From the NCBI GenBank assembly GCA_947649575.1, contig CANSRZ010000004.1, forward strand, positions 71,569 to 135,568: a DNA stretch of 64,000 bases. The letters run 5' to 3'. The notes below the pieces were generated by a model. That model was not told the origin of the DNA and ran no database searches. It was given only the letters and a program-made list of their open reading frames with translations. The stretch is from an uncultured Clostridia bacterium (GTDB taxonomy: Bacteria; Bacillota; Clostridia; Christensenellales; UBA1242). The position numbers were made by a program, and so were the translations under genes. Positions within the stretch are counted from its first letter, which is position 1; the number at the start of each line of letters is the position of its first letter. Positions 7,648-48,583 of this stretch are shown one piece after another.

Positions 7648-7683
7648 CTTCTTTTCTTTTAAAGAAAAGAAGCAAAAGAAAAC
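7648..7683 (+). repeat. hairpin repeat family, solo copy (CTTCTTTTCTTT-T-AAAGAAAAGAAG + CAAAAGAAAAC), A orientation, directly 3' of trxA
   Basis: Perfect 12-bp polypyrimidine/polypurine inverted repeat followed by CAAAAGAAAAC. The same unit recurs at 15299, 19698, 27133, 27333, 46371 and 46577. Confidence 0.8.
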
Positions 7684-7690
7684 TAAAAAC

Positions 7691-7730
7691 AAAACGCTTA
7701 CTAAAATTATTTAATTTTAGTAAGCGTTTT
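7691..7730. terminator. bidirectional rho-independent terminator between trxA and the convergent 7760..8107 gene
   Basis: AAAACGCTTACTAAAATT / AATTTTAGTAAGCGTTTT long perfect stem flanked by A and T runs. Confidence 0.8.
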
Positions 7731-7759
7731 GTATTGACTTTAACTTTATTAAATTCTTA

Positions 7760-14356: not shown

Positions 14357-14631
14357 AAACCGAGCTAGACGGAGAGTTAGCGGTGCTCTGTAACCTACAA
14401 TCCGCTATAGTAGGGTTGACGATTTGCTTCGGTTTAAATTTTTTGAATATGTGTGATGTTATTTAATGTTGAAGTCAAGGTCTTATGCAATTAAAATTCA
14501 TGAACCAGGTCAGAGCTTGACGGCAGCATCCTTAAGTGAACACTTTAGTGTGCCATAAGGTAGCTTTGGTGGAGTTAAATAATGTCAAGGCAGTCAGGGA
14601 ATTTTTATCAACGCAAATCGCTCGGTTTTGA
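14357..14631 (+). ncRNA. ffs: signal recognition particle RNA, large Bacillus type (scRNA)
   Basis: AGCGGTGCTCTGTAACCTACAATCCGCTATAGTAGGG matches the Alu-domain of B. subtilis scRNA. TCATGAACCAGGTCAG..GACGGCAGCATCCTTAAGTGAA matches domain IV. The 5' end AAAACCGAGC pairs with the 3' end GCTCGGTTTT. Ends are approximate. Confidence 0.85.
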
Positions 14632-15298: not shown

Positions 15299-15335
15299 AT
15301 TTTTCTTTTGTTTCTTTTCTTTAAAAGAAAAGAAA
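15299..15335 (-). repeat. hairpin repeat family, solo copy (TTTTCTTTTG + TTTCTTTTCTTT-AA-AAGAAAAGAAA), directly 3' of ung
   Basis: Same unit as 7648..7683 in the opposite orientation on the + strand. Relative to ung (minus strand) it lies just after the stop, in the same way as the other A-orientation copies. Confidence 0.75.
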
Positions 15336-15343
15336 TCTAAAAT

Positions 15344-16003
15344 TTATTCCCAGTTTATAGGTTGTTCGTCATGTTTGACTAAAAAGTCGTTGCATTTGGA
15401 AAAATGCTTGCAACCGAAGAAACCACGATAAGATGAGAGCGGGCTTGGATGAGGCGCTTTGAGGACTAAGTGATGACTTGGTATTTGCGGAGCAAAGGCT
15501 TGTGCGTTTGAGCCCCAAAGAAGAAATACGATTGGCTTTTCGCGCTTAGCAAGGAGGTTTATCACTGCGCTTGTGAACTCTTCCCAGCCATGGCCTCGGT
15601 GAGAGTTTGCTTGATGAGCGCGAACGGTTAGTGTGGTGTTGAGTAGCAGTACTCCTTGTTTTGCCCAGCGTGACAAATTGCCAGAATTGATTGGCTCTAT
15701 GCCGAGGTCGTCATGGATTTCCTTAAAAATATTTACAAGGCTTGGCGGAATAATAAAATCGTCTGGCACTGAGAAAGAAAGCCCTTGTGCTTGACCTGGT
15801 TCGTGATAAGGGTCTTGACCAATGATTACAACTTTGACATCATCATATGAAGTGAAGTTCAGGGCATTGAAAATATTCTCCATTGACGGATAAATTGTTC
15901 GCGTGGCATACTCGTCATCCAAAAATGCTTGCAAATTTTTGAAATATGGCTTGTCAAATTCTGGCTTTAAAAGTTCAAACCAATTCTTTTTGATTTTTAT
16001 CAT
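15344..16003 (-). CDS. ung: uracil-DNA glycosylase
   Basis: Motifs GQDPYH and HPSPLS. Start placed at the second ATG (MIKIKKNWFELL), which has an AAGGAAA RBS; the track starts at 16024. Confidence 0.93.
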   Translation of the reverse strand: MIKIKKNWFELLKPEFDKPYFKNLQAFLDDEYATRTIYPSMENIFNALNFTSYDDVKVVIIGQDPYHEPGQAQGLSFSVPDDFIIPPSLVNIFKEIHDDLGIEPINSGNLSRWAKQGVLLLNTTLTVRAHQANSHRGHGWEEFTSAVINLLAKREKPIVFLLWGSNAQAFAPQIPSHHLVLKAPHPSPLSSYRGFFGCKHFSKCNDFLVKHDEQPINWE

Positions 16004-16125
16004 ATGTTTTCCTTTTATATGCAAAGTTTAGCATATTTGCATATTCTCAGTCAAGCGAAAATATTTTTTTAATTTTGGCTTGTAAAAATTTTGAGTTTGT
16101 GATATAATTAAAATAAGGAGAGGTT

Positions 16126-19139: not shown

Positions 19140-19382
19140 TATTTGAAATAAAAGCGTTGATGAAAGACAAGGTTTTAAGCGGAAGTTTTCAGAGAGTTGC
19201 TGGTTGGTGAAAAGCAATGGCGGAGGCATAAAATTATCACTTTCGGAGTTGCTTGGCTGAAAATTATAGTAAGGCAAGTCGGGACTTCCCGTTATAGAAG
19301 GCGTGAGTGATAGCTCACTATAAGTTTACAAGTGGTTAAGCCTTTTTAAAGCACGGGGGTCTTGTATCTTTCCGTGCTTTTT
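19140..19382 (+). promoter_or_regulatory. T-box leader (Ile specifier) with intrinsic terminator
   Basis: Stem I elements TGATGA (K-turn), CAGAGAG and GGTTGGTGAAA. Candidate specifier ATC followed by A at 19236-39. UGGU bulge at 19333-36 flanked by ACAAG/CTTGT. Terminator AAAGCACGGG / TCCGTGCTTT followed by a T run (19348-19382). Lies upstream of ileS. Confidence 0.75.
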
Positions 19383-19384
19383 GC

Positions 19385-19581
19385 AACCTGATGTTGCACG
19401 ACTGTCTTATGAGCTTATAGCAAATTCAAATTGTATTCGTTCATAACAAGCGACCAGATGTCGCCCGAGTGTCTGCGAACTGTAATGAAAATTCATTTTA
19501 CAATCGTTCAACTAGCAAAGCGCTTGGCAATTGTCTTATTGGACACTTACAAAAACTAATTAGTTGTGCAACATCTGGTTA
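19385..19581 (+). repeat. approx. 197-nt element closed by a 19-bp imperfect inverted repeat (structured RNA or MITE-like insert)
   Basis: AACCTGATGTTGCACGACT (19385-19403) pairs with AGTTGTGCAACATCTGGTT (19562-19580), with 1 mismatch and 1 G-U. Internal hairpins at 19407-46, 19450-64 and 19478-19508, and helix 19467-74/19541-48. Confidence 0.6.
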
Positions 19582-19697
19582 TTTTCTTCTTTAAATTTTA
19601 TTAAAAAAATAAAAGATAAAGTTTGCGATTTTAGAAATTTGCAAATGAATTAGAAAGAAGAAAAAATCTTAAAGCGAATTTCTTAAATCGCAAAAAG

Positions 19698-19732
19698 TTT
19701 TCTTTTGCTTCTTTTCTTTGAAAGAAAAGAAG
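19698..19732 (-). repeat. hairpin repeat family copy (TTTTCTTTTG + CTTCTTTTCTTT-G-AAAGAAAGAAG type), B orientation, about 10 nt upstream of the ileS RBS
   Basis: GTTTTCTTTTG CTTCTTTTCTTT G AAAGAAAAGAAG. It is the right end of a partial third copy of the 235-bp element (19598-19732 resembles the right halves of the 27133 and 46371 elements). Confidence 0.75.
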
Positions 19733-26422: not shown

Positions 26423-27124
26423 ATGGAAGAAAAGTTGAATGTTTTATATGAAGATAATCATGTGGTTGTGGTGATTAAGCCTCAAAATATGCCTTCGCAA
26501 GAAGATGAAAGCGGGGACATGGATTTATTAACGCTTGTAAAAAGTTATATTAAAGAAAAATATAACAAGCCAGGCGAGGTGTTTATTGGTCTTGTTCATA
26601 GACTTGATAGGCCTACCGGTGGCATTATGGTTTTTGCACGCAATTCAAAGTCGGCTGCAAGACTTTCAGAGCAAATCCGTGAGCATCAAATGGAAAAAAC
26701 TTATTATGCAGTTTGCAATGGCTGTCCTAAAGAGAAGAGCGGTAGTCTTATCAACTATCTTAAAAAGGACGAGAAAGAGAATATTGTTAAGATTGTGACG
26801 CGTAGTGAAACTGGCGCAAAAGAGGCAAAGTTAAGTTATAAAGTTTTGCAGGCAAATGAGGATAAATCTTTACTTGAAGTCAAAATTATAACTGGACGCA
26901 GTCATCAAATTCGCGTGCAAATGGCAGGCATAAACTGTTCACTTGTAGGGGACAATAAATATGGCAAAAATACTAACAAGGCTACTTCAAACTTAGGACT
27001 TTGGGCTGGCAAGTTAGAATTTGTTCACCCAGTAACCAAAGAGAAAATGGTGTTTATGGCAAAGCCTGACCAAGGCAAAGCTCCTTGGAAAGATTTCTAT
27101 TTAGATAAATATTTTATACGATAA
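26423..27124 (+). CDS. RluA-family pseudouridine synthase
   Basis: Catalytic motif HRLDRPTGGIMVFA. GRSHQIRVQM motif. Confidence 0.85.
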   Translation: MEEKLNVLYEDNHVVVVIKPQNMPSQEDESGDMDLLTLVKSYIKEKYNKPGEVFIGLVHRLDRPTGGIMVFARNSKSAARLSEQIREHQMEKTYYAVCNGCPKEKSGSLINYLKKDEKENIVKIVTRSETGAKEAKLSYKVLQANEDKSLLEVKIITGRSHQIRVQMAGINCSLVGDNKYGKNTNKATSNLGLWAGKLEFVHPVTKEKMVFMAKPDQGKAPWKDFYLDKYFIR

Positions 27125-27132
27125 GAGTTTGA

Positions 27133-27367
27133 CTTACTTTTCTTTTAAAGAAAAGTAAGCAAAAGAAATATAAAAGCCTTTCTTAATTATTAAATAATTG
27201 GCGAAAGGCTTTAAAATTTTTTCTTATTTTTAAAAAAAGTAAAAAATATAATATTTAACGTTTTGAAAAATTTCCGAATTACTTTAATGAGAAAAGGATT
27301 TTAAAGCAAATTTAAAAAGCGTTAATATTTAGATTTCTTTTGCTTCTTTTCTCAAAAAGAAAAGAAG
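27133..27367 (+). repeat. full-length approx. 235-bp intergenic element (MITE-like) with hairpin-containing terminal inverted repeats, copy 1
   Basis: Left end CTTACTTTTCTTTTAAAGAAAAGTAAG CAAAAGAAAT (27133-69). Right end ATTTCTTTTG CTTCTTTTCTCAAAAAGAAAAGAAG (27333-67). Internal boxes TTAACGTTTTGAAAAATTT (27255-) and AAATTTAAAAAGCGTTAA (27308-25) are shared with copy 2 at equivalent offsets. Confidence 0.8.
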
Positions 27368-27391
27368 AGGGAAAAACAATAAGGAGATTTT

Positions 27392-29167
27392 ATGAAAACG
27401 AGAAATGAGATTGAAGAAAAGTATAAATGGGATTTGAGCTGCTTTGGTGTTAACGATGGCAATTTTTATGCCAAGTGTGATGAAATCAAGAAACTTATGG
27501 AAGAAATATATAAGTTTAAAGGAAAGCTTGAAACCGATGATGATATTTACAAAGTTATGAAGCTTGATGATAAAATTGACAGACTGATTGAGCCTCTTGA
27601 CATGTTTATTCATCTTAAAAGCGTGGAAGATTTAAGCCTCTCCAAATATGACGAGATGAGTGATTTTTTGGAAAAGATTGAAATTGAATATAATCAAAAA
27701 ACGCTGTTTGTTACCGAGAAACTTAAAAAACTGAGCAATAAACAAATCAATGACATGCTGGCACAAAAACGTTTTGAGGAGTGGGAACTGTATCTTAAAA
27801 AACTGAAAGATAACAGGAAGCACAGAGTATCCAACAGCGTTGATAAATTTTTGGCAGGCGCTGACTTTTTGGGTGGAAACAATGAAATTATGGAAAAATT
27901 TACTGATGTGGATATGACATTCCCAGATGTTGAAGACGGTGAAGGCAAAAAGCATGAATTTAACGAAAGCAATGCGATAAGCTATCTTCAAAGCGATGAT
28001 AGAATTTTGCGCAGAAATGCAATTGTTAATTTGCATGGCACTTACGGCAAATATATCAACATGTTTTCAACAAATTATATTTATTCTGTCAAAGAAGATT
28101 GCTTTTTTGCTAAGGGTTATAAATTTAAAAATGCAATGGCTCGTTCTATGAATGCGGAGGAAGTTAAAGAGAAGATTTACATTACTTTAATCAAAAATGT
28201 ACGAGAAAATTTGCCACTTTTGTTTGACTATTTTGAACTTAAACGTCAAAAACTTGGGTTGAATGATTTTTATAATTATGACGCTTATGCAACATTGGAT
28301 GTTGAAAACAATAAAAAATTCACCTACGACGAAGCAATTGAACTTATCAAAAAAGCGGTTGCTCCGCTAGGCGAGGATTATGTTTCGCTAATTCAAAGAG
28401 CAAAAGACGAACGCTGGATTGACGTTTTCCCTAACAAGAACAAGCGTGGAGGAGCATTTGAAACTTCAATATATGGTTATCATCCATTTGTTATGACAAA
28501 TTTTAACTGTGGGCTTGAAGATGTGTTCACGCTTGCACATGAGCTTGGTCATGCAATGCATTCATATTATTCTGACAAAGCTCAGAATTATGAGAAAGCT
28601 CAATACAAAATCTTTGTTGCCGAGGTTGCAAGCACTACAAATGAAATGTTGCTTTTGCAATATCTTCTTAAAAATGCCAAATCTGACAAAGAAAAAGAAT
28701 GCTATTATAATAAACTTTTTGAAAGCGTGAAATCTACAATTTTCCGTCAAACGATGTTTGCTGAGTTTGAAGAAAAAGTTCATGCTGAACATGAAAACGG
28801 CGGGGCTTTGTCAAAAGACAAACTTTGCGATATCTATTACAAACTCAACGAGGACTATTTTGGCAAAAAAGTTAAACTTATGCCAGAAGTTAAATTTGAA
28901 TGGGCAAGAATCCCGCATTTCTTTTCGCCATTCTATGTTTATAAATATGCAATTGGACTTATATGTGCGTTGAATTTTGCTGAGAAATTATTTAATCAAG
29001 AAACTGGTGCACGAGAGAATTATATCAATAAATTTTTGTGTGCGGGCAAAAGCAAACCGCCAGTTGAGATTTTGAAAGAGGCAGGTTGTGACCTTGAAAA
29101 ACAAGAAACTTATACAGAAACTTTTGAATATTTGCAAGACATGTTAAAGGCATGGAAAAAACTTTAA
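27392..29167 (+). CDS. pepF: oligoendopeptidase F (M3B)
   Basis: 591 aa with zinc motif HELGHAMH. M3 family layout. Confidence 0.9.
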   Translation: MKTRNEIEEKYKWDLSCFGVNDGNFYAKCDEIKKLMEEIYKFKGKLETDDDIYKVMKLDDKIDRLIEPLDMFIHLKSVEDLSLSKYDEMSDFLEKIEIEYNQKTLFVTEKLKKLSNKQINDMLAQKRFEEWELYLKKLKDNRKHRVSNSVDKFLAGADFLGGNNEIMEKFTDVDMTFPDVEDGEGKKHEFNESNAISYLQSDDRILRRNAIVNLHGTYGKYINMFSTNYIYSVKEDCFFAKGYKFKNAMARSMNAEEVKEKIYITLIKNVRENLPLLFDYFELKRQKLGLNDFYNYDAYATLDVENNKKFTYDEAIELIKKAVAPLGEDYVSLIQRAKDERWIDVFPNKNKRGGAFETSIYGYHPFVMTNFNCGLEDVFTLAHELGHAMHSYYSDKAQNYEKAQYKIFVAEVASTTNEMLLLQYLLKNAKSDKEKECYYNKLFESVKSTIFRQTMFAEFEEKVHAEHENGGALSKDKLCDIYYKLNEDYFGKKVKLMPEVKFEWARIPHFFSPFYVYKYAIGLICALNFAEKLFNQETGARENYINKFLCAGKSKPPVEILKEAGCDLEKQETYTETFEYLQDMLKAWKKL

Positions 29168-32529: not shown

Positions 32530-32737
32530 GTGCAAACATATTGTTAAATGCGACTTTTCTGGTTGCAACAACTTGGCACAGTTCTCTTTTTCAACAAAGG
32601 GCTTGATTAAGAGAGATTTATGCTTTTGTGAAGATTGTTTGAAAAGCATGTTTGAATGTTTTTCTAAAATGCAAATTCCAAAAGGAATTGAAAGCCCATT
32701 TAAATTAAACAAGAGGTTAAAGAAAAATGAAAAATAA
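32516..32737 (+). CDS. small Cys-rich (zinc-ribbon-like) protein
   Basis: GTG start after AAGGAGGA. Cys pairs CKHIVKC..C and CFCEDC. Overlaps both neighbours. Confidence 0.4.
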   Translation: MEITKCKHIVKCDFSGCNNLAQFSFSTKGLIKRDLCFCEDCLKSMFECFSKMQIPKGIESPFKLNKRLKKNEK

Positions 32738-34571
32738 AAATGTAGATAAAAAGAATTTAGTTAAAGATGTGATTGACGATTTTCATAAACGTCAAATTGA
32801 TAGAAAAAGTTTTGATTCTATTTGGCAAGTTAATATGAACTTTTTGCTTGGCAATCAATATTGCAATATTGGCTATGGCGGACTTTTAGAAGAGCAAGAC
32901 AAGCAATATTTTTGGCAGGAGAGGGAAGTTTTTAATCATATTGCACCTATTTATGATGTTCGCTTTGCAAAGCTGTCTAAGATTAAGCCAAAGATGACGG
33001 TTATTCCTGCGACAACTGATGAGCGTGATGTTAAAACTGCAAAGGTTTCTAAAAAAATTCTTTCAGCAGTTTACAACAAGATGAGTTTTGACGACAAAAT
33101 CAACACTGCATTAAAGTGGAGCGAGGTTTGCGGAACTTGTTTTTATAAAGTTGTCTGGTCAAACGAACTTGGACAAGTTGTTGGCATTGACGAGGACGGC
33201 AACAAAATCAGAAGCGGGGATATTGACATAAGCGTTTGCTCACCATTTGAAATTTATCCTGACAATATGTCGGCTGAAAGTCTTGACCAATGCCAATCTA
33301 TTATTCACGCAAAAGCGTACAGTGTTAGCGAAATCAAAGAAATGTTTGGCGTTGACGTTGAGGGCGGAACAATAAAAACATTTACTTTAAACAATGTTAT
33401 TTCAGGGCTTGGCGGACTTGGCTATAACGCAACGGCTACAAAAATTACCCAAAGCGTGAAAGGTGATTCTGCAATTGTTATTGAGCGTTATGAAAGACCA
33501 AGCAAAGGTTATCCAAATGGCAGACTTGTTATTGTTGCGGGCGACAAACTTGTATTTGACGGCGAACTTCCTTATCTTAACGGCATTGACGGCAAGCGTG
33601 ATTTCCCATTTGTTCGTCAGGTTAGTTTTGAAAACCCAGGCTGTTTCTGGGGAAGCAGTGTGATTGAAAGACTTATTCCTGTGCAAAGGGCTTATAATGC
33701 TGTTAAAAACAGAAAGCATGAATTTATTAATCGTTTATCGCTTGGCATTTTGAGTGTTGAGGACGGTTCAGTTGATATTGAAAACTTGGAGGATGAGGGC
33801 TTGTGTCCTGGCAAAGTTCTTGTGTATAGACAAGGCTCAAATCAGCCTAAATATCTGTCTGCTGAAAGTATTCCGACAGGGCTTAGCGATGAAGAAGATA
33901 AACTTTTAAGTGAATTTTCTAAAATAAGCGGAGTTAGTGAACTTTTGGATAGTAATTATCTTGCCTCAAATGTGTCAGGCTCGGCACTTGAACTTTTGAT
34001 TAATCAAGATGAAATGCGATTAAATACAAGCAGCGAAAGTTTGAAAAGTGCTATCAAATTTGTTGCTCAACATATTTTGAGATTGTATAAGCAATTTGCT
34101 CTTTTCCCAAGACTTGCAAAACTCGTTGGAGAAAACGGTCAGGTTGAGATGTTCTATTTCTCATCAAACGATGTGTCTAGTGACGATGTTGTTATCAGCG
34201 CTCAAAATGATATGGGGGAAACCTTAACTCAAAGACGAGAAACTTTGTTTAAACTGCTTGAAAAAGGACTGTTATATGACCAAGACGGCAATTTAAACAG
34301 CAGAGCAAAGGCTAAATTTTTGGAAATGTTCGGGCTTGGAGTTTGGGAAAGCGGTCAAGATTTGAACAGTTTGCAACTTAACAATGCCGAAGAAGAAAAT
34401 CTTAAAATGCTTGACGGCGTTGTTGTTAAGAATAGCGAAATTGATGACAATCAAATTCATATAAATGCACATATTGCATTCATGCTTGGCGAGGATTATA
34501 AAAAGGCAAAGGCTAAAAATCCAAAACTTGAAAGTATATTCTTAGAGCATGTAAGGGCTCATAAAGCTTAA
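32727..34571 (+). CDS. phage portal-like protein
   Basis: 614 aa. N-terminal pattern R..D.KSFDSIWQVNMNFLLGNQY followed by VFNHIAPIYDVRFAKLSKIKPKMTVIPATTDERDVKTAKVSKKIL is typical of portal N-termini. Position is upstream of scaffold and capsid genes. Confidence 0.6.
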   Translation: MKNKNVDKKNLVKDVIDDFHKRQIDRKSFDSIWQVNMNFLLGNQYCNIGYGGLLEEQDKQYFWQEREVFNHIAPIYDVRFAKLSKIKPKMTVIPATTDERDVKTAKVSKKILSAVYNKMSFDDKINTALKWSEVCGTCFYKVVWSNELGQVVGIDEDGNKIRSGDIDISVCSPFEIYPDNMSAESLDQCQSIIHAKAYSVSEIKEMFGVDVEGGTIKTFTLNNVISGLGGLGYNATATKITQSVKGDSAIVIERYERPSKGYPNGRLVIVAGDKLVFDGELPYLNGIDGKRDFPFVRQVSFENPGCFWGSSVIERLIPVQRAYNAVKNRKHEFINRLSLGILSVEDGSVDIENLEDEGLCPGKVLVYRQGSNQPKYLSAESIPTGLSDEEDKLLSEFSKISGVSELLDSNYLASNVSGSALELLINQDEMRLNTSSESLKSAIKFVAQHILRLYKQFALFPRLAKLVGENGQVEMFYFSSNDVSSDDVVISAQNDMGETLTQRRETLFKLLEKGLLYDQDGNLNSRAKAKFLEMFGLGVWESGQDLNSLQLNNAEEENLKMLDGVVVKNSEIDDNQIHINAHIAFMLGEDYKKAKAKNPKLESIFLEHVRAHKA

Positions 34572-34588
34572 AAATAAAAGGAGTTATT

Positions 34589-35269
34589 ATGGAAAAAGAT
34601 TTTAGAGAACAACCATTAGAGGAACCGGCAAATGCTTTAAACGTAGCGAATGAGGAAAGTGCTGTGAGTGAGAATGGCTCTCTTGAACAAAGGCAAGAGG
34701 AAAGTTCTGAAAATTTAAACAGCCAAAGCGATAATTTTGAAAAAGAGAGTCAAACTTTTGGCAAATTTAAAAATGCGGAAGCGTTGTTAGAAGCTTATAA
34801 CAATCTTCAATCAGAATTCACCAAAAAGTGCCAGCGCCTAAGTGAACTTGAAAAAGACAAAACTGAAAAAGCAACACAAGAACAAAATACAGAAAGTTTA
34901 CTGGAAAACAATTTAAATCAGTTCCTTTCAAAGAACGCTGAAGCCAAAGATTATGCCGAAGAGTTGAAACAAAAAATTTCTATTCAAGGCGATTATTCTG
35001 AAAACGCTTTTCAAAATGTTTGGGCAGGCATTGTGCTTGACCATATCAAATCAAAAGCATGTGTTCAGGATAAAATAGTGGACAAATATGTCCTTTCTGA
35101 CGAAAATGTAAAAAATATAGTTATTCAAAATTATCTAAATTCACTTAAAGAAAATTCTTCACCAATTGTAATTTCTTCTAAAAAGGGTGAGAGGGTGTCT
35201 GATTTATCATCGGACACTCCAGCTTCCCTTAACGATGCAAGAATTATGATGGAAAGATTATTTAACTGA
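34589..35269 (+). CDS. scaffolding-like protein
   Basis: Acidic, Q/E/K-rich, predicted coiled coil. Lies between the portal-like and capsid-like genes. Confidence 0.5.
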   Translation: MEKDFREQPLEEPANALNVANEESAVSENGSLEQRQEESSENLNSQSDNFEKESQTFGKFKNAEALLEAYNNLQSEFTKKCQRLSELEKDKTEKATQEQNTESLLENNLNQFLSKNAEAKDYAEELKQKISIQGDYSENAFQNVWAGIVLDHIKSKACVQDKIVDKYVLSDENVKNIVIQNYLNSLKENSSPIVISSKKGERVSDLSSDTPASLNDARIMMERLFN

Positions 35270-35344
35270 TTTTTATATAATTTATAATAAAAAAACTACA
35301 TTTTTGTTAAATTATTTAAATTTTTAATTTTTAAGGAGATGAAA

Positions 35345-36544
35345 ATGGTTACTTTAACTACTGCAAACAACGCACTTAAAGAAGTTTACGTTGGCGTTGT
35401 AGCAAATCAATTAAACATTAATGCAAACCCACTTCTTGCTCAAATCAAAAGAAGCAACAAGGATATATGGGGAAAAGAAATCGTAAAAATGACTACTTAT
35501 GGAATTAACGGCGGTGTTGGCGCTGGCGAAGAAGCTGGCGAACTTCCTGTTGCAACTGGCAATAACTATGCTCAAATTCGCGCAAGCCTTAAAAACCTTT
35601 ATGGTCAACTTGAAATTTCTGACAAAGCAATAAAAAGCTCATCAAACAACATCGGCGCTTTTGTTGACCTTTTGGCTTATGAAATGGAGGGGCTTGTAAA
35701 GGCTAGCTCTTTCAACCTTGGAAGAATGCTTTATGGCGATGGCACTGGCAAAGTTGCTACTATTTCTGCTGTTGATACAGCAAGCAAAACTGTTACTTGC
35801 GACAGCGTTAGAAACATAATCGAGGGCATGATTTTAAATGCTTATGCTGGCGACACAAAGAAAAACACTTCTGTTATCAAAGTTACTTATGTTGACCGCG
35901 TTAACAATAAGTTCACTTTTGACGGAACAATCTATGCAGGTGATGAACTTGCTGAAAGTCAAGTTTTGTATGTTCAAGGCTCAAAAGGACTTGAAATTTC
36001 TGGTCTTGGCAAAATTTTCTCTGAAACAGAGGATACTCTTTATGGACTTTCAAAAGCTGACAATGCTTGGCTTAAACCTTATCAAACTGCTACTACTGAA
36101 AAAGAAATCTCTGATATTTTGATGCAAGAAGCTCTTGACTTCTTAGAGGAAAACGTTGGCTCTAACATCAACTTTATTGCAACTTCAAGCAAAGTTCGCA
36201 GAGCTTATCAAGAATATCTTGGCGCTTACAGAAGAAACGTTGAAATTATGGAACTTAACGGCGGATTTAAAACACTTTCTCATAATGGAATCCCTGTTGT
36301 TGCTGACCGTTTTGTTGCTGATGATGAAATGTTTATGCTTAACACAAACGACTTTACTCTTCATGAACTTGACGACTGGAAATGGATTGAGGGTGAGGAT
36401 GGAAGCGTTCTTCGTCAAAATCCAGGACATGCAACTTATAGTGCAACTCTTGTTAAATATGCTGAACTTGTTTGTGATAGACCAGCAGGACAAGCAAAAA
36501 TTCGCGGAATCAAATCTAGCGTAACAAATCCATTCCATGCTTAA
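35345..36544 (+). CDS. major capsid-like protein
   Basis: About 400 aa. Start at the second ATG, 6 nt after AAGGAG. Followed by a strong terminator. Position after the scaffold gene. Sequence features (LYGQLEISDKA, RMLYGDGTGKV) are reminiscent of HK97-fold capsid proteins. Confidence 0.6.
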   Translation: MVTLTTANNALKEVYVGVVANQLNINANPLLAQIKRSNKDIWGKEIVKMTTYGINGGVGAGEEAGELPVATGNNYAQIRASLKNLYGQLEISDKAIKSSSNNIGAFVDLLAYEMEGLVKASSFNLGRMLYGDGTGKVATISAVDTASKTVTCDSVRNIIEGMILNAYAGDTKKNTSVIKVTYVDRVNNKFTFDGTIYAGDELAESQVLYVQGSKGLEISGLGKIFSETEDTLYGLSKADNAWLKPYQTATTEKEISDILMQEALDFLEENVGSNINFIATSSKVRRAYQEYLGAYRRNVEIMELNGGFKTLSHNGIPVVADRFVADDEMFMLNTNDFTLHELDDWKWIEGEDGSVLRQNPGHATYSATLVKYAELVCDRPAGQAKIRGIKSSVTNPFHA

Positions 36545-36549
36545 TAAAT

Positions 36550-36579
36550 AAAAAGCCAAAAATAATTTTTTGGCTTTTT
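36550..36579 (+). terminator. terminator/attenuator after the capsid-like gene
   Basis: AAAAAGCCAAAAA-TAA-TTTTTTGGCTTTTT. Confidence 0.8.
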
Positions 36580-36647
36580 ATTCTATTTTAGTTATAAAAA
36601 ATGTGTTTTTTGCAGTTTTTTGATTAATTTTTTGAAAATTAGGAGTT

Positions 36648-36965
36648 ATGATGAAAAAATATTTTTTGATAAATAGCGATGTGTATTTTATAGCAGAGCG
36701 TATAAAGCAAATTGATAAAAACTATTTTATTGTTTTCAACCGATTGAAAAACAAGTTTGAAGTTCACGCCTTTGGGCAAGAGGGAGGCACTTATTGTTTT
36801 ACTATTCCATTTGACGCCCTTGACGAGCGAACGCTTGAATTTACTTTAAAAACGCGAAGCCAAAATATGAATCAAATCATAAAAGAGATTGACGAGGCTA
36901 ATCAAAAGCTGCAAAAAGACAACCTGAAATTTGCGACTAAAAAAATTGAGGAGGTTTTATTATGA
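36648..36965 (+). CDS. hypothetical protein (105 aa), capsid module
   Basis: Intact ORF. Its stop overlaps the next start (ATGA). Confidence 0.45.
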   Translation: MMKKYFLINSDVYFIAERIKQIDKNYFIVFNRLKNKFEVHAFGQEGGTYCFTIPFDALDERTLEFTLKTRSQNMNQIIKEIDEANQKLQKDNLKFATKKIEEVLL

Positions 36966-37522
36966 ACGCAATAGATATTATTAAGCTTGCTTGTGATTTT
37001 ACTGGCAATGAAGATTTGGCGATGAAGCTTGAAGAAGAAAACCCAGAGTTTACAACTTCTGAAAACAAAACATTAGCTGTAATGCTGAAATGCTTGAACT
37101 TAATTCAAAACGAAGTGGCAACTGAATATATTCCACTTGTTGCATTTCAAGATGTGACAGCCGTGGACTTCAAAGTTGATTATTCTAAGTTTGACAAAAA
37201 GCCAATTTCTATAATTTCTGCAAAAGACAAACTTGGCAGAAATATCCGCTTTAAAGCTTTTGCCGATTATCTGATGTTATTTGCTGGCAAGGCAAAAATA
37301 AAATATTATTATATGCCAGAAGAGATAAATTCAATCCAAGATACACTTTCTCAGCCACTTTTGCCTATGCGCATATATGCATATGGCATAGCTAGAGAAT
37401 ATTATCTTCTTCAAAATCTTTCTGACGATGCTGATATTTGGGAGGTTAGATTCAAGGATAGTCTATCTGTTTTTGCAAGAAAAAAACAAGATGTCAAAAT
37501 GCCTTGTAGGAGGTGGTTATGA
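36962..37522 (+). CDS. hypothetical protein, possible head-tail connector
   Basis: 186 aa. The N-terminal IIKLACDFTGNEDL resembles gp6-like connector N-termini. ATGA coupling on both sides. Confidence 0.35.
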   Translation: MNAIDIIKLACDFTGNEDLAMKLEEENPEFTTSENKTLAVMLKCLNLIQNEVATEYIPLVAFQDVTAVDFKVDYSKFDKKPISIISAKDKLGRNIRFKAFADYLMLFAGKAKIKYYYMPEEINSIQDTLSQPLLPMRIYAYGIAREYYLLQNLSDDADIWEVRFKDSLSVFARKKQDVKMPCRRWL

Positions 37523-39003
37523 TTTATAAACACCTTGTAAAGGGCAAAAAAAGCACCAGCAAAGATTTGGTGTTTGATGTCTTTGATGATTATGTTAATT
37601 TAAACGATTCAGAAGATAAACAAAAATTTAACAGAGTTTCTAGCACTTATAATTTTGACTTATCTAACGGGCAGTTGTTGACAGGCTATGGATTTAAAGA
37701 TTTAAGCATGCCAACAAACACGTCTGATATGGACAACGAAACATTAATCAATGTTAGAGGAAATGAAATAACTGCAATTTGGTCATTCAGATGGTTCGAC
37801 TTTGCTTTAAAAGACAATAAATATTATATTGTTTACTTTAACGATGGAAACTATCTGGAATTTGCTAATCTTTTTCATGAAAGACCGCTTCCGCTTTATG
37901 CAGAAACTCATTTCAATAAAGCACCAATCGGATGCCCAATACGTTATGAAAAAGATGACGCCTTGTTGTTTTCATCAGATGTTGACGGCTTGTTTTTGCT
38001 GACAGGTGCAATCACCAAAACTTTCAAACTTGCTCCAAGGCTATTGTCGCTTTGCTCGGCATTTGATAAAATTTTTGCGGTTATTGCAAATGACAGAGCA
38101 AGCTTGATGTACACAGATGATAAAAACATTTCGCATTGGACTGAAAACAATTTGGAAGAAATCAAGTTTGACGATGAAAGAGGGAAACTCAATAAAGTTA
38201 TACTTTTGAACGATTATGTTTATGTTATACGTGACTTTGGAATAAGCAGAATTTCTGTTTACAGCACAAGTGGCAACTTTGATATCAGTCAACTTTATCA
38301 ATCGGACAGCTATATTTTCCCAGGAACGATTGCCTCATCTGGTGATAAAATATACTTTTTGGAGGGCTCTGGAATCTTTGCTTTTAATGGTTCATCTACA
38401 AGCAAGATTAATCTTGACTGCGATGAACTGTTGAAAAACGCTGACAAACGTAATGCCAGTGCAGTTTGTTTTGAGGGGAAATATTATCTTTCGTGCAGAT
38501 ATGATTTTAACGACGGACAAACTGTGGGCTGTGAAAGCAATCCTAAATGTGTGAACAATTTGCTTTTGGTGCTTGACCTTGTTTCAAAAAAGGTGAATGT
38601 GCTTAGAGGTGTTGATATTCATCAACTTTGCGTGTTGAACAATCCTTATAAAAGCAAAGTTGTTGCATGTTTTAACGGCGAGTATTGCAATAGAATTGGG
38701 GAACTGACAAATGACGGAATAATATTTGATAATGCGACGCAAAAAATTTGGACAAGCGTGCTTAGCACTTTGTCTTATCCAGAGAAATTGAAGCGTGTTA
38801 AATTTTTGAATATAAAAACAAAAACCGATTGTGATGTTGTGATAACAAGCGAAAAGCAGTCAAGGACTTATCATGTTTATGGAAGTGATAAACTTCAACA
38901 AATCAAAGTGGATGTGACAGGACGAGAACTTCAAATATCTTTCAAATGCAATGATGCAAATGCTAACATTTCTAATGTGAAGTTAATATATAATGTGATA
39001 TGA
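37519..39003 (+). CDS. hypothetical structural-type protein (494 aa)
   Basis: ATG 5 nt after AGGAGG, overlapping the previous stop. Beta-rich repetitive composition. No Walker A motif, so it is not a terminase. Confidence 0.45.
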   Translation: MIYKHLVKGKKSTSKDLVFDVFDDYVNLNDSEDKQKFNRVSSTYNFDLSNGQLLTGYGFKDLSMPTNTSDMDNETLINVRGNEITAIWSFRWFDFALKDNKYYIVYFNDGNYLEFANLFHERPLPLYAETHFNKAPIGCPIRYEKDDALLFSSDVDGLFLLTGAITKTFKLAPRLLSLCSAFDKIFAVIANDRASLMYTDDKNISHWTENNLEEIKFDDERGKLNKVILLNDYVYVIRDFGISRISVYSTSGNFDISQLYQSDSYIFPGTIASSGDKIYFLEGSGIFAFNGSSTSKINLDCDELLKNADKRNASAVCFEGKYYLSCRYDFNDGQTVGCESNPKCVNNLLLVLDLVSKKVNVLRGVDIHQLCVLNNPYKSKVVACFNGEYCNRIGELTNDGIIFDNATQKIWTSVLSTLSYPEKLKRVKFLNIKTKTDCDVVITSEKQSRTYHVYGSDKLQQIKVDVTGRELQISFKCNDANANISNVKLIYNVI

Positions 39004-44109: not shown

Positions 44110-46356
44110 ATGGCAAATTATGATATCAATTCTTTAAATGATGAACAATTACTCCCTCTCAAACAAATCGAGGGGGCTATTTTAGTTACAGCAGGTGCTG
44201 GCTCTGGCAAAACAAGGTTGCTTACTCACAGAGTTGCTTATTTGATAGACGAGTTTCATGTTTCTCCTTATAATATACTTGCTATTACATTTACAAATAA
44301 GGCTGCTGGCGAGATGAAAGAGCGTATTTCAAAAATGGTTGACGGGGCTGAGGGTGTTTGGATTTCTACTTTTCACTCTATGTGTGCAAGGATTTTAAGA
44401 CGTGACATTTCTGTAATGTATCCTTATGACAAAAATTTTACAATTTATTCAGCAGATGACAGCAGTCGAGTTGTAAAAGATATTCTTTCAGAGCGAAACA
44501 TCACTGATGATAAAATCAAAAAAGCAGTTGAGTTCCATTTGTCCAATTGGAAAAACACAAGCATGAGGCTTGAAGAATATGTGACTGCGCATAAAGACGT
44601 GATTGATATTGAAAAAATCGGATTTTTTATCAAAGAGTATGAAGATAGGCTGAGAAAGAACAATGCTCTTGATTTTGATGACCTGCTTAGAAAAACAATG
44701 CAGCTTTTTAAAGAATATCCTGATGTGCTTGCTCATTATGCAAATAGATTTAAGTTTATTTTAGTGGATGAGTTTCAAGATACAAACACTGTTCAATATG
44801 ACCTTGTTAAACTTCTTGCGTCAGTTCATGGCAATGTGTTTGCTGTTGGCGATGAGGATCAATGCATTTATTCTTGGCGCGGAGCTAACTTTCAAAATAT
44901 CTTTAATTTTAAGAAAGACTTTCCAAATTGCAAAGTGTTTAAGCTTGAACGCAATTATCGTTCAACTTCTGGCATATTGACGGTTGCAAATAATGTTATC
45001 AAAAACAACTCAGCGCGTCTTGACAAAAAGATGTGGACTGACAAAGGTGTTGGACAAACGCCTGAGCTATACAATGCCTATGACGAGCGAGATGAAGCAC
45101 TTTTTGTGGCTAAAAATATAGAAAAACTTGTTGCAAATGGCTATAAATATGATGAAATTGCGGTTTTAATGCGTTTAAACGCGTTATCACGCAGTTTTGA
45201 AGAGGCGTTTTTATCTTATAACATTCCGCACAGAATTTATGGCGGCTTTAAATTTTTTGAACGTCAAGAAATTCGATATATAATTTCATATTTAAGACTG
45301 TTTATAAACAAAAAAGACGATGTTTCTTTGCTTAGAGTTATCAATTTCCCAAAACGTGGCATTGGCGATGGAGCGATTTCGAAAATTAAAGCTTTGGCGG
45401 GTGACAATTCGCTGTTGGATACAATATTATCTCCAATTATGCTTGATGAAAATGCTGTTTACAAAAAGCTTGCAGATTTTGTCAATGTTTACAATGCTCT
45501 AGAAAAGCATTCCCACAACAAAATTTCAGAGTTTGTTGAGGAGGTTATAAAGGCGTTCAAAATCAGGGAGGCGTACAGCGAAAAGACAGAAGAAGACACA
45601 AACAGACTGCTCAATATTGACTCTTTTACGGCTTCTGTCAAAGAGTTTGAGAATGCTAATCCTGAAATGACATTGGCAGATTATCTTGAAACTATAACTT
45701 TGATTTCTGACAGTGATGAGATTGGTGAAAACGGAGCGGTCACTATTGCAACCGTGCATGCTGTTAAAGGACTTGAATACAAAGCGGTGTTTGTGATTGG
45801 GCTGGAAGAGGGGATATTCCCTATTTCGCGAGTTAACAGTGCAAGCGACCTTGAAGAAGAGAGGCGACTTTTGTATGTCGCAATCACGCGTGCCGAAGAA
45901 ATTTTGTACATGAGCCATTGTTCAAAGAGATACATGTATGGTCAAAGCCAATATCAATCTGCAAGCAGGTTTATAAGAGAGCTTGGGCTTTTGGGATTAT
46001 CAATGACCAAGTCTGACAGAAATGATTTTGCGTTTTCTGGAAATTCTGGTGGCGGATATAAGGCAACAAAATCTTGGACAAGTACTGCGTTTGGCGGAGA
46101 TAATTTATCAAGCGAGAATTCAACTGGCTTTACATTTAAGCATAATGATTTTATGAGCAAGCTTAACAGTAAAGTTGACGACAAGCCAAAGAAAGATGTA
46201 ACTATATATAATATAGGGCAAAAGGTTGTTCATCCCAAGTATGGCGAGGGGCAGATTATTGATATCACGCCAGACGGACTCGTGGCAGACATACTTTTTG
46301 AAGATTTTGGCAAGAAGTCCCTAATGCTAGAACTCGCCCCACTAGAAATAATTTAA
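44110..46356 (+). CDS. pcrA: ATP-dependent DNA helicase PcrA (UvrD family)
   Basis: Walker A AGAGSGKTRLLTHR. DEFQDTN. YRS..I. VHAVKGLEY. pcrA-ligA synteny. Confidence 0.93.
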   Translation: MANYDINSLNDEQLLPLKQIEGAILVTAGAGSGKTRLLTHRVAYLIDEFHVSPYNILAITFTNKAAGEMKERISKMVDGAEGVWISTFHSMCARILRRDISVMYPYDKNFTIYSADDSSRVVKDILSERNITDDKIKKAVEFHLSNWKNTSMRLEEYVTAHKDVIDIEKIGFFIKEYEDRLRKNNALDFDDLLRKTMQLFKEYPDVLAHYANRFKFILVDEFQDTNTVQYDLVKLLASVHGNVFAVGDEDQCIYSWRGANFQNIFNFKKDFPNCKVFKLERNYRSTSGILTVANNVIKNNSARLDKKMWTDKGVGQTPELYNAYDERDEALFVAKNIEKLVANGYKYDEIAVLMRLNALSRSFEEAFLSYNIPHRIYGGFKFFERQEIRYIISYLRLFINKKDDVSLLRVINFPKRGIGDGAISKIKALAGDNSLLDTILSPIMLDENAVYKKLADFVNVYNALEKHSHNKISEFVEEVIKAFKIREAYSEKTEEDTNRLLNIDSFTASVKEFENANPEMTLADYLETITLISDSDEIGENGAVTIATVHAVKGLEYKAVFVIGLEEGIFPISRVNSASDLEEERRLLYVAITRAEEILYMSHCSKRYMYGQSQYQSASRFIRELGLLGLSMTKSDRNDFAFSGNSGGGYKATKSWTSTAFGGDNLSSENSTGFTFKHNDFMSKLNSKVDDKPKKDVTIYNIGQKVVHPKYGEGQIIDITPDGLVADILFEDFGKKSLMLELAPLEII

Positions 46357-46370
46357 GTTTGTTTTTATGT

Positions 46371-48583
<2,213 letters not shown>

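Follow-up and report, generated by a model that had tools for sequence, protein, structure and literature searches.

Intergenic spacers of an uncultured Clostridia bacterium as candidate members of a REP/BoxC-like structured repeat family

Correia elements of Neisseria, RUP and BOX of pneumococcus, and ERIC are non-coding intergenic repeats of 100–250 bp that are co-transcribed with adjacent genes, vary in presence between strains, and combine inverted ends with long RNA stems; BOX is, to our knowledge, the only one of them represented in Rfam. Here we analyzed a 64,000-nucleotide stretch of DNA from an uncultured Clostridia bacterium (Christensenellales, UBA1242; contig CANSRZ010000004.1, positions 71,569–135,568; hereafter the window), in which an original prediction made from the letters alone had singled out two look-alike intergenic spacers of about 235 bp and likened them to Correia/RUP/BOX-type miniature elements. 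The ends of both spacers consist of a ~35-nt module, i.e., a pyrimidine/purine hairpin followed by a tail that mirrors one of its arms. [quoted passage not shown]

E. coli and further Proteobacteria contain BoxC, PIT, or TMECO repeats (Hoyne et al. 2000, cited by Holder et al. 2015, NAR 43:10126, PMC4666352), which are ~37 nt long and always intergenic, and which the latter paper describes as absent from phages, plasmids, and transposons and flanked by genes without a common function. According to the same paper, certain copies pair up in inverted orientation, joining two subtypes, the loci are more rearranged between close strains, and triplex formation by a TMECO oligonucleotide was shown by circular dichroism and nuclear magnetic resonance (PMC4666352). 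REP, BIME, and REPIN sequences are palindromes tagged with GTAG or CGTC; REP families are extragenic, lie mostly downstream of genes, are plausibly transcribed, and are in some cases common to several species (Di Nocera et al. 2013, PMC3733652).

Anatomy and covariation of the end module

The window has a G+C content of 36%, and the relative loci or contigs compared with it are designated by L-numbers. Copy 1 of the spacer (27133–27367) sits between an rluA-like gene (26423–27124) and pepF (27392–29167), and copy 2 (46371–46606) between a pcrA-like gene (44110–46356) and ligA (46634–48583). All statements of the original prediction about their sequence were verified. Both spacers have inverted hairpin ends and an identical layout, copy 1 running from CTTACTTTTCTTTTAAAGAAAAGTAAG+CAAAAGAAA at the left (27133–27168) to TTTCTTTTG+CTTCTTTTCTCAAAAAGAAAAGAAG at the right (27334–27367). 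The shared inner boxes start with TTAACG at +122 (copy 1) and +126 (copy 2), the exact 18-mer AAATTTAAAAAGCGTTAA recurs at 27308 and 46550 (+175 and +179), and the right-end hairpins, placed by the prediction 10–15 nt before the ribosome-binding site (RBS) of an unrelated gene, end 13–15 nt upstream of it in both copies. The two spacers align blockwise, with conserved ends and boxes and a variable hairpin near +40. A 25-nt hairpin pattern gave 6 matches (three palindromic sites on both strands, ≤3 mismatches) against none in 100 shuffles. In calculations that consider Watson–Crick and G·U pairs only, the hairpin arms folded as DNA with z = −1.9 to −5.3, and the whole spacers folded as RNA with z = −4.8 and −5.7 relative to shuffles.

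The underlying unit is the ~35-nt module, which comprises a hairpin of 12–13 bp (22–27 nt), its 5′ arm all pyrimidines and its 3′ arm all purines, and a tail CAAAAGAAA (C, A-run, G, AA). Scanning the window for a pyrimidine arm, a 3–5-nt loop, and a purine arm followed by C-AAAA-G-AAA returned seven modules in 64 kb. All of them fall within the intergenic 9.8 kb, and no coding sequence contains one; four make up the spacer ends and three are solo. Their positions, and those of the features between the spacer ends, are as follows.

27133–27159 (+): copy 1, left-end hairpin CTTAC TTTTCTTT t AAAGAAAA GTAAG; 12-bp stem, 8 nt past the rluA-like stop codon; DNA fold −9.8 kcal/mol, z −5.3
27160–27168 (+): copy 1, tail CAAAAGAAA; mirror of the upper purine arm (putative third-strand segment) and complement of the head at 27334–27342
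27172–27222 (+): copy 1, variable hairpin AAAAGCCTTTC...GAAAGGCTTT, then a T-run; orthologous to a terminator in L113 and L002
27247–27252 (+): −10-like box TATAAT, conserved with (AG)TATAATAT, which is located 5–8 nt upstream of the pepF RBS in L113 and L002
27255–27325 (+): copy 1, long inverted repeat ("type A" hairpin) TTAACGTTTTGAAAAATTTCC ... GCAAATTTAAAAAGCGTTAA, corresponding to the two inner boxes
27334–27367 (−): copy 1, right-end module, head TTTCTTTTG and hairpin CTTCTTTTCT caaaa AGAAAAGAAG; ends 13 nt before the pepF RBS (AAGGAG, 27381–27386)
46371–46406 (+): copy 2, left-end module, hairpin GTTAC...GTAAC and tail CAAAAGAAA; starts 14 nt past the pcrA-like stop codon
46412–46454 (+): copy 2, "type B" long hairpin AATTTGCGATAC...GTATCGCAAAT; adjoins the left module, with the same hairpin type beside modules in L110, L113, L013, and L023
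46497–46567 (+): copy 2, type A inverted repeat TTAACGCTTTGCAAAATTTGC ... GTAAATTTAAAAAGCGTTAA
46577–46606 (−): copy 2, right-end module, head GTTTTTTG and hairpin CTTCTTTTTT tc AAAAAAGAAG; upper C:G pair and head/tail G lost together
7648–7681 (+): solo module, hairpin and CAAAAGAAA; 6 nt past a thioredoxin-like stop codon, then a terminator-like hairpin (7690–7733)
15302–15335 (−): solo module, 8 nt past the stop codon of the minus-strand gene 15344–16024 and preceded by a terminator-like hairpin
19613–19732 (−): half element of the ileS leader, made up of the long inverted repeat TTTGCGATTTTAGAAATT...GAATTTCTTAAATCGCAAA and the module 19699–19732 (head TTTCTTTTG, hairpin 19708–19732)

The segments at opposite spacer ends had been described as mutually complementary. 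This is correct for the tail CAAAAGAAA, but the tail is also a mirror copy of the purine arm of its own hairpin, a relation that had gone unnoticed. Across modules, the number of A's between the G's of the arm recurs between the C and the G of the tail: arm and tail runs were equal in 7 of 11 modules with three A's, 71 of 82 with four, and all 10 with five, the three- and five-A classes being by-catch outside the selection imposed by the search pattern. Likewise, the arm AGGAAAG is matched by the tail CAAAGGA, and arms without the inner G have tails without G. Mirror runs of at least 7 bases were found in 131 of 239 pyrimidine/purine hairpins, compared to 18 of 1195 controls. The lower stem varies yet stays complementary (CTTC/GAAG, GTTC/GAAC, GTTAC/GTAAC, TTTAC/GTAAA, GTTCC/GGAAC), its closing pairs including C-G, G-C, T-A, and A-T, and the lowest 3–4 scored stem pairs were Watson–Crick in 92% of cases versus 57% with shuffled partners. 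Lower stem and tail give two separate covariation signals, which point to a structure under selection.

Replication and recombination errors give, as far as we know, direct or inverted repeats and not mirror repeats, and we know of no structure other than the triple helix in which mirror repeats matter. The module follows the three-block layout CTTTTCTT, 3–5 nt, AAGAAAAG, 4–6 nt, AAAAGAA, with the mirror relation kept for A-runs of 3, 4, and 5 and for GG, as in the class II intrastrand triplex defined by ITxF, i.e., a pyrimidine stem, its Watson–Crick purine partner, and a mirroring second purine block, with stems of 6–15 nt and loops of 1–6 nt (PMC4666352). The tail strand reads pyrimidine, purine, purine, which is the class II purine motif, and the opposite strand reads head, pyrimidine, purine, the class IV pyrimidine motif (both definitions from Holder et al. 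2015, PMC4666352); the latter layout could also arise in RNA, as U·A-U. An alternative triplex register, in which the tail would start at the foot of the full hairpin and run upward, its G facing the lower G, was rejected because the tail A-run tracks the A-run of the upper arm and not the length of the lower stem.

Position and orientation follow a rule. All window modules point the hairpin toward the adjacent gene and the tail toward the spacer; as a rule of the family, the hairpin lies 5–37 nt from a stop or start codon. Among 47 modules at loci with G+C <50%, the hairpin side was closer to the gene in 35 (p = 0.001), and within 40 nt of a gene it was the hairpin side in 24 and the tail side in 4. 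The half element before ileS ends 21 nt upstream of the ATG and lies downstream of a T-box (19148–19367, +; 86.3 bits, E 2.9e-19), which a default Rfam scan missed because its score is just below the gathering score of 93. About 330 nt of extra sequence, half element included, separate this T-box from the ileS RBS, and gene-preceding modules are therefore transcribed leader sequence. Past stop codons, terminator-like hairpins come after the modules; the one preceding the module at 15302–15335 could serve transcription in both directions. Within copy 1, the hairpin at 27172–27222 resembles an intrinsic terminator for the rluA operon, which a simple terminator scan did not call because it has too few G-C pairs, and the TATAAT at 27247–27252 is a candidate −10 box on the basis of its conservation with L113 and L002, a two-hexamer scan not having called it. 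Overall, promoter and terminator scans of both spacers gave no more sites than in shuffles. Searches of Rfam 15 with the spacer, the Cupriavidus element described below, and 14 other loci, at gathering score and permissive E-values, returned nothing relevant, only chance microRNA-like overlaps.

Most modules adjoin a second, longer hairpin of variable sequence, with which they form a half element of 90–125 nt. The type A hairpin consists of the two inner boxes of the original prediction (TTAACGCTTTGCAAAATTTGC ... GCAAATTTAAAAAGCGTTAA), and its consensus fold (7 copies from 5 loci) showed compensatory changes in 10 of 29 predicted pairs, type A and module hairpin counted together; type B has the form AATTTGCGAYAC...GTRTCGCAAAT. 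The ~235-bp element thus exists as predicted, but as a composite of two half elements arranged tail to tail, each of which is also found alone, both past stop codons and before RBSs. Paired half elements span 190–600 bp, and two end types can be distinguished, left TTAC/GTAA and right CTTC/GAAG. Right halves 75–78% identical to those of the window precede unrelated genes at non-orthologous loci of other metagenome-assembled genomes (MAGs; L004, L077, L106). Together with the further copies in the window and complete left and right pairs in a relative, these identify a dispersed non-coding repeat family, as had been proposed, rather than two paralogous leaders. That such leaders make up a regulon was also rejected in view of the unrelated genes, the occurrence at both gene ends and in both orientations, and the spread across phyla.

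Separately, a second repeat family of ~60–70 nt (…CCAAATGTCGCCCGACTATCTTAC…ATTGTATTCGGTCAAGG…) is arranged tandemly upstream of half elements: in the window (~19400–19560), in L004 (~1920–2060, reverse strand), and in L106 (2480–2640), and L112 differs from the window at this site (~19400–19560) by a 61-nt indel.

Distribution and strain-level turnover

We scanned one genome per species (596 Gb) for the exact pattern CTTTTCT-N5-AGAAAAG-(N)-AAN-CAAAAGAA, which has 24 fixed bases. At least 107 stretches matched, in at least five phyla, compared to a chance expectation that we roughly estimate at <1. Among the matches listed were many Clostridia MAGs, Bacteroidota (Chitinophagales and Flavobacteriales), Latescibacterota, one Helicobacteraceae MAG, and cultured Cupriavidus, where the flanking DNA has a G+C content of 67%; several relatives had multiple matches per genome. 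In Cupriavidus, a ~600-bp multicopy element, non-coding and with a conserved interior, has the module at its left end and takes the form hairpin+CAAAAGAAAGCG ... CGCTTTCTTTG+hairpin, which is the architecture of the original prediction in another phylum. Many genomes contain inverted pairs with 60–550 bp between the partners as well as direct tandems and arrays, and inverted left/right module pairs were seen in the window, L023, L034, L058, L095, and Cupriavidus. The exact pattern had 0 matches in 2.9 million viral contigs, and plasmid BLAST searches with the whole copy-1 spacer and with the Cupriavidus element returned nothing; a phage or plasmid origin was rejected on these two results. Literature searches by exact sequence and on the topics of REP/RAYT and MITEs yielded no description of the module, the sequence matches being unrelated viral primers. 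The cross-phylum spread and the covariation of the mirror tail are the unexpected parts of this analysis.

Several loci showed arrangements of their own. L085 (1550–2600 and ~7900) and L109 (2950–3250 and 5490–6400) contain module arrays with a period of ~80–155 bp, in which another conserved hairpin, GCGCC(C)TTTCATTGCG..., comes after every module; these lie in a genome of 48–49% G+C, and therefore resemble clustered repeats rather than the two-module pairs of the window. In Chitinophagales (L052 3300–3620; L059 5034–5110; L017, L008, L057, L079), the module is followed by TCG and then by a hairpin of varying stem with a conserved loop GCTCCGCC and 3′ flank GGCTYACGCGCA, a distinct covarying unit of ~95 nt. 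A Flavo-1 RNA (RF01705, 57 bits; L070 1129–1283, −) lies ~1 kb from a module in a Chitinophaga MAG, which is probably a coincidence.

Orthologous spacers were compared through MAGs with the closest PepF proteins outside the species of the window (62–71% identity), and through strain variants located among cluster members. For the rluA–pepF spacer, the three more distant relatives are as follows.

L113 (MGBC129253): syntenic, 72–87% nucleotide identity; spacer of 159 bp with a degenerate left hairpin, recognizably the same terminator, AGTATAATAT, and RBS
L002: PepF 69% identical; spacer arranged as in L113
L001: PepF 71% identical; spacer of 88 bp without any module

The spacers of L113 and L002 are without the right half. 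In the window, ~125 extra bases (type A hairpin and right module) stand between the conserved −10 box (27247–27252) and the RBS, and the right half of copy 1 therefore looks like an insertion into a very short leader, with a left half that is old at this site and orthologous to the degenerate hairpin and terminator of the relatives. L113 also has a decayed version of the long hairpin and module in its ileS leader. No intact module was found in the syntenic 23 kb of L113 or in L001 and L002 (35 kb), compared to seven in the window.

Closer strains differ in which family member they hold. The window allele at rluA–pepF is shared by L111 (98% identical) and by L115, which matches throughout the aligned spacer. 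In L110, rluA and pepF are 92.7% and 97.8% identical to the window and the spacer contains a different family member: similarity stops inside the left tail (27164) and restarts 8 nt before the right head (27327). The L110 element is 75% identical to copy 2 of the pcrA–ligA spacer when reverse-complemented, end to end, versus 58% in forward orientation and ~53% for shuffles, so that L110 holds a complete "46-type" element at a second locus in opposite orientation. Compensatory changes turned the type A stem of this element from TTAACGC/GCGTTAA into TTGACGC/GCGTCAA. L114, 93% identical over ligA and the adjoining part of the upstream spacer, has a left-type module that directly follows the ligA stop codon and is missing there from the window, together with a different hairpin type before ligA. 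Short-read contigs begin or end exactly inside modules (L111 start, L112 end, and L114 end; Logan assemblies of SRR24951065, same sample), as expected because the module is a multicopy repeat. Presence or absence, orientation, and occupant of a site thus vary between strains; the original prediction had proposed to look for presence/absence polymorphism and for target-site duplications, and of the latter none was found in these spacers. Further copies exist, the sequence is neither limited to one regulon nor universally fixed, and more distant relatives have emptier sites.

Relation to described repeats and rival explanations

The module has the order of segments of BoxC/PIT/TMECO repeats (pyrimidine arm, loop, purine arm, loop, and second purine segment; class II) and, like them, is intergenic, forms inverted pairs, is absent from viral contigs, lies next to unrelated genes, and takes part in strain-level rearrangement. 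Unlike BoxC, it is A/T-rich (CTTTTCTT/AAGAAAAG/AAAAGAA and not CCCTCNCCC/GGGNGAGGG) and does not match the TMECO consensus CCCTCNCCC N3-6 GGGNGAGGG N3 GGGNGAGGG; being unrelated in sequence, it therefore falls outside the BoxC sequence family and has only the structural class in common. It further differs from BoxC in an extra covarying lower stem of 4–5 bp within the second "loop," in its usual coupling to a second long hairpin, in its many variants that keep the three-way match where BoxC is one frozen sequence, and in its presence in Clostridia, Bacteroidota, Betaproteobacteria, and other groups where BoxC is known from Proteobacteria. TMECO has no preferred distance to genes, whereas the module sits tight against stop codons and RBSs in a fixed orientation.

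Like REP sequences, it is an extragenic palindrome of 20–40 bp that bears a conserved unpaired tag on one side and occurs in many copies, mostly downstream of genes, plausibly transcribed, and in several species; as in BIMEs, units often sit near one another, in opposite orientation, and can fold into larger structures. Its tag is CAAAAGAA(A), 8–9 nt long and mirror-related to the stem, in place of GTAG or CGTC; its stem is A/T-rich homopurine/homopyrimidine and not G+C-rich; its partners are 60–550 bp apart with inner hairpins of their own; ~40% of copies precede RBSs; and no RAYT (Y1 transposase) flanked by REPs was seen in the 10 window open reading frames (ORFs) scanned, near 107 module loci, or between module pairs. 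The window elements resemble Correia, RUP, BOX, and ERIC in being short, non-coding, intergenic, and present or absent between strains, with inverted ends. In contrast to the four, each end is a perfect hairpin with a mirror tail, the halves occur alone, and there is no sequence similarity, and in contrast to Correia and RUP no TA or other target-site duplication and no related insertion sequence was found, including a search for a parent insertion sequence with the same ends in ~0.8 Mb of module loci. The likeness drawn by the original prediction therefore survives only as a functional analogy, and membership among transposase-driven MITEs such as Correia and RUP is unproven because no target-site duplication, autonomous partner, or transposase was found. 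Since the tail is a mirror copy of its own purine arm, the anatomy points to BoxC/REP-type structured repeats over MITEs derived from insertion sequences. With no GTAG/CGTC tag or CCCTC/GGGAG blocks, and with no target duplications or parent insertion sequence found in the loci searched, the module was therefore assigned to no named family.

A repeat family of this kind could have arisen and persisted as follows. One strand would fold either as an extended hairpin or as a pyrimidine–purine–purine intrastrand triplex; a module and a long hairpin make a half element, and two half elements placed tail to tail make an element with inverted ends, so that inverted module pairs may bracket exchangeable intergenic cassettes. 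Copies would be gained, lost, swapped, and inverted among intergenic sites, most likely through recombination or template switching at self-folding homologous ends, or alternatively through an enzyme acting in trans. They would persist only at gene boundaries, transcribed into untranslated regions: past a stop codon the hairpin would precede a terminator, and before a gene the long hairpin and module would fill the leader between promoter or T-box and RBS. Any effect on the host would probably concern the stability of mRNA ends or the insulation of transcription. Once in place, copies may act as hairpins at mRNA ends, may supply A- or U-tracts to an adjacent terminator hairpin, or may have no role.

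Several observations weigh against this family of recombining repeats. A near-identical module across phyla is unusual for REP-like repeats, and the favored model does not explain it. On geometric reasoning, the module seemingly could not adopt the extended hairpin and the mirror-register triplex at once, because the covarying lower stem centers the mirror repeat with one linking base, which leaves the conservation of both unexplained. Neither in double-stranded DNA nor in vivo was a stable triplex of BoxC observed (PMC4666352). On the side of mobility, a Pfam scan of the 10 unannotated window ORFs found no transposase or recombinase; no recurrent ORF family was seen near 107 module loci, except artefactual ORFs inside the Cupriavidus repeat; the ORFs enclosed between module pairs are housekeeping genes (dnaA, cca, rbgA, thrS, priA), with no mobilizing enzyme among them; and no target-site duplication flanks either copy or the insertion junctions deduced from L113 and L002, although the A/T-rich context limits the power of that search. 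Much of the pattern is vertical inheritance with decay and not recent movement, because degenerate modules persist in a distant relative at two of the three orthologous sites, and the L110 allele could stem from ordinary allelic recombination with a diverged strain.

The main rival, to which we give limited credence, is that the modules are host cis-regulatory RNA elements, neither selfish nor recombinogenic, the similar spacers reflecting a common function and vertical inheritance. Before genes, the U-rich head and hairpin, possibly as a U·A-U triple helix, would protect the leader or tune translation; past stop codons, the hairpin, A-rich tail, and terminator would set and protect the mRNA 3′ end, with tail and head supplying the A- and U-tracts of the terminator hairpin in both directions. 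The strict rule of position and orientation and the persistence of degenerate copies at orthologous sites in L113 and L002 keep this explanation alive. The ileS copy in a transcribed leader downstream of a T-box is equally in its favor, as are the placement of the head TTTCTTTTG after a long hairpin, like the U-tract of a terminator, and the lower-stem mismatches, which on the tail strand are C·A in 12 cases and G·T in 2 and would thus be G·U wobbles on the head strand. The head strand also folds better in 14 of 20 gene-preceding copies, but copies past stop codons split 12 versus 15 by sense versus antisense energy. The sense RNA of the latter has the purine-tail layout, and RNA reportedly does not form purine-motif triplexes (PMC4666352), yet in these copies the mirror tail is conserved to the same degree. 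A shared regulatory function also fits poorly with unrelated flanking genes (pepF, ligA, ileS, trx, dnaA, cca, thrS), with close relatives that are without the element, and with near-identical strains that hold different family members, in either orientation, at one site; moreover, an efficient terminator-like hairpin and U-tract right before ileS and pepF would be harmful.

Units of 190–600 bp could instead be classical MITEs or REPIN-like elements moved by a transposase encoded elsewhere, e.g., an HUH/Y1 enzyme (RAYT, IS200/IS605) reading a hairpin and guide. The hairpin with a short conserved single-stranded tag follows REP/RAYT logic (PMC3733652), and a horizontally spread enzyme would fit the identity of ends across phyla. 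Further points in favor of transposition are the distinct left (TTAC/GTAA) and right (CTTC/GAAG) hairpins of mutually inverted ends, the full-length 46-type copies at two loci in both orientations, and the Cupriavidus multicopy element with its conserved interior. We nevertheless consider this explanation unlikely: neither the surroundings of ~110 loci nor the interior of any pair yielded a transposase, target-site duplications were not seen, the viral-contig and plasmid searches were empty for the pattern and for the spacer and Cupriavidus element, respectively, half elements and direct tandem arrays are common, only the right half of copy 1 appears inserted, its left half being orthologous to older sequence, and covariation of a mirror repeat has no role in known transposase recognition. 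Far less probable still is an inverton, i.e., a promoter-bearing segment flipped by a site-specific recombinase to make pepF and ligA phase-variable. This would account for the ~170-bp interior, which holds a −10-like box as well as a terminator-like hairpin and is flanked by ~35-bp inverted repeats, and for the strain with an element of opposite orientation at the same site. The interior of L110, however, is 65% identical to that of the window when reverse-complemented and 61% in forward orientation, and matches another family member instead; three of the four rluA–pepF spacer sequences (window and three relative contigs) share one allele; modules also occur solo past stop codons, and the ends are themselves palindromes; and no recombinase was detected in the window ORFs scanned, the flanking genes being housekeeping.

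Beyond a REP/BoxC-like repeat family, we tentatively entertain a stronger and rather doubtful proposal, in which the module is a conserved, selected triple-helix device with a biological role, its flanking strand docking in the major groove of the hairpin, toggling with the extended hairpin, and marking gene boundaries in at least five phyla. Such a device would take the form of a U·A-U/C+·G-C triplex in leader RNA, or of an intrastrand or H-DNA triplex in DNA. If true, this would be a new and widespread class of structured elements defined by three-way covariation, with a role in transcript-end control or in programmed recombination of intergenic cassettes, and not sequence debris. BoxC/PIT is one frozen sequence, and therefore nothing had indicated that the third segment matters, and triplex repeats stayed a curiosity. 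The variants of the module keep three segments matched in several phyla, which provides for base triples the type of comparative evidence used for RNA helices. Since the module ends MITE-like cassettes that differ between near-identical strains, it also links non-B structure with the turnover of spacers containing promoters and terminators, for which Cupriavidus offers a culturable host. In practical terms, module repeats fragment short-read assemblies of gut Clostridia at gene boundaries.

Other features of the window

Two adjacent ORFs of equal length (134 aa; 62796–63200 and 63345–63749, both −) and several further ORFs at the 3′ end of the window had no Pfam match. The only Rfam family above gathering score in the window was the bacterial large signal recognition particle RNA (RF01854, 156.7 bits; 14360–14625, +). 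A block of phage-like genes at ~32700–39000 has counterparts in L001 (16441–18986) and L002 (9803–16039), with Pfam matches of the relatives' genes to a P22-type portal and an SU10-type major capsid protein. Because this block is syntenic in the window and in relatives whose PepF is only ~70% identical, its conservation suggests an old fixed prophage remnant or a cluster resembling a gene-transfer agent.

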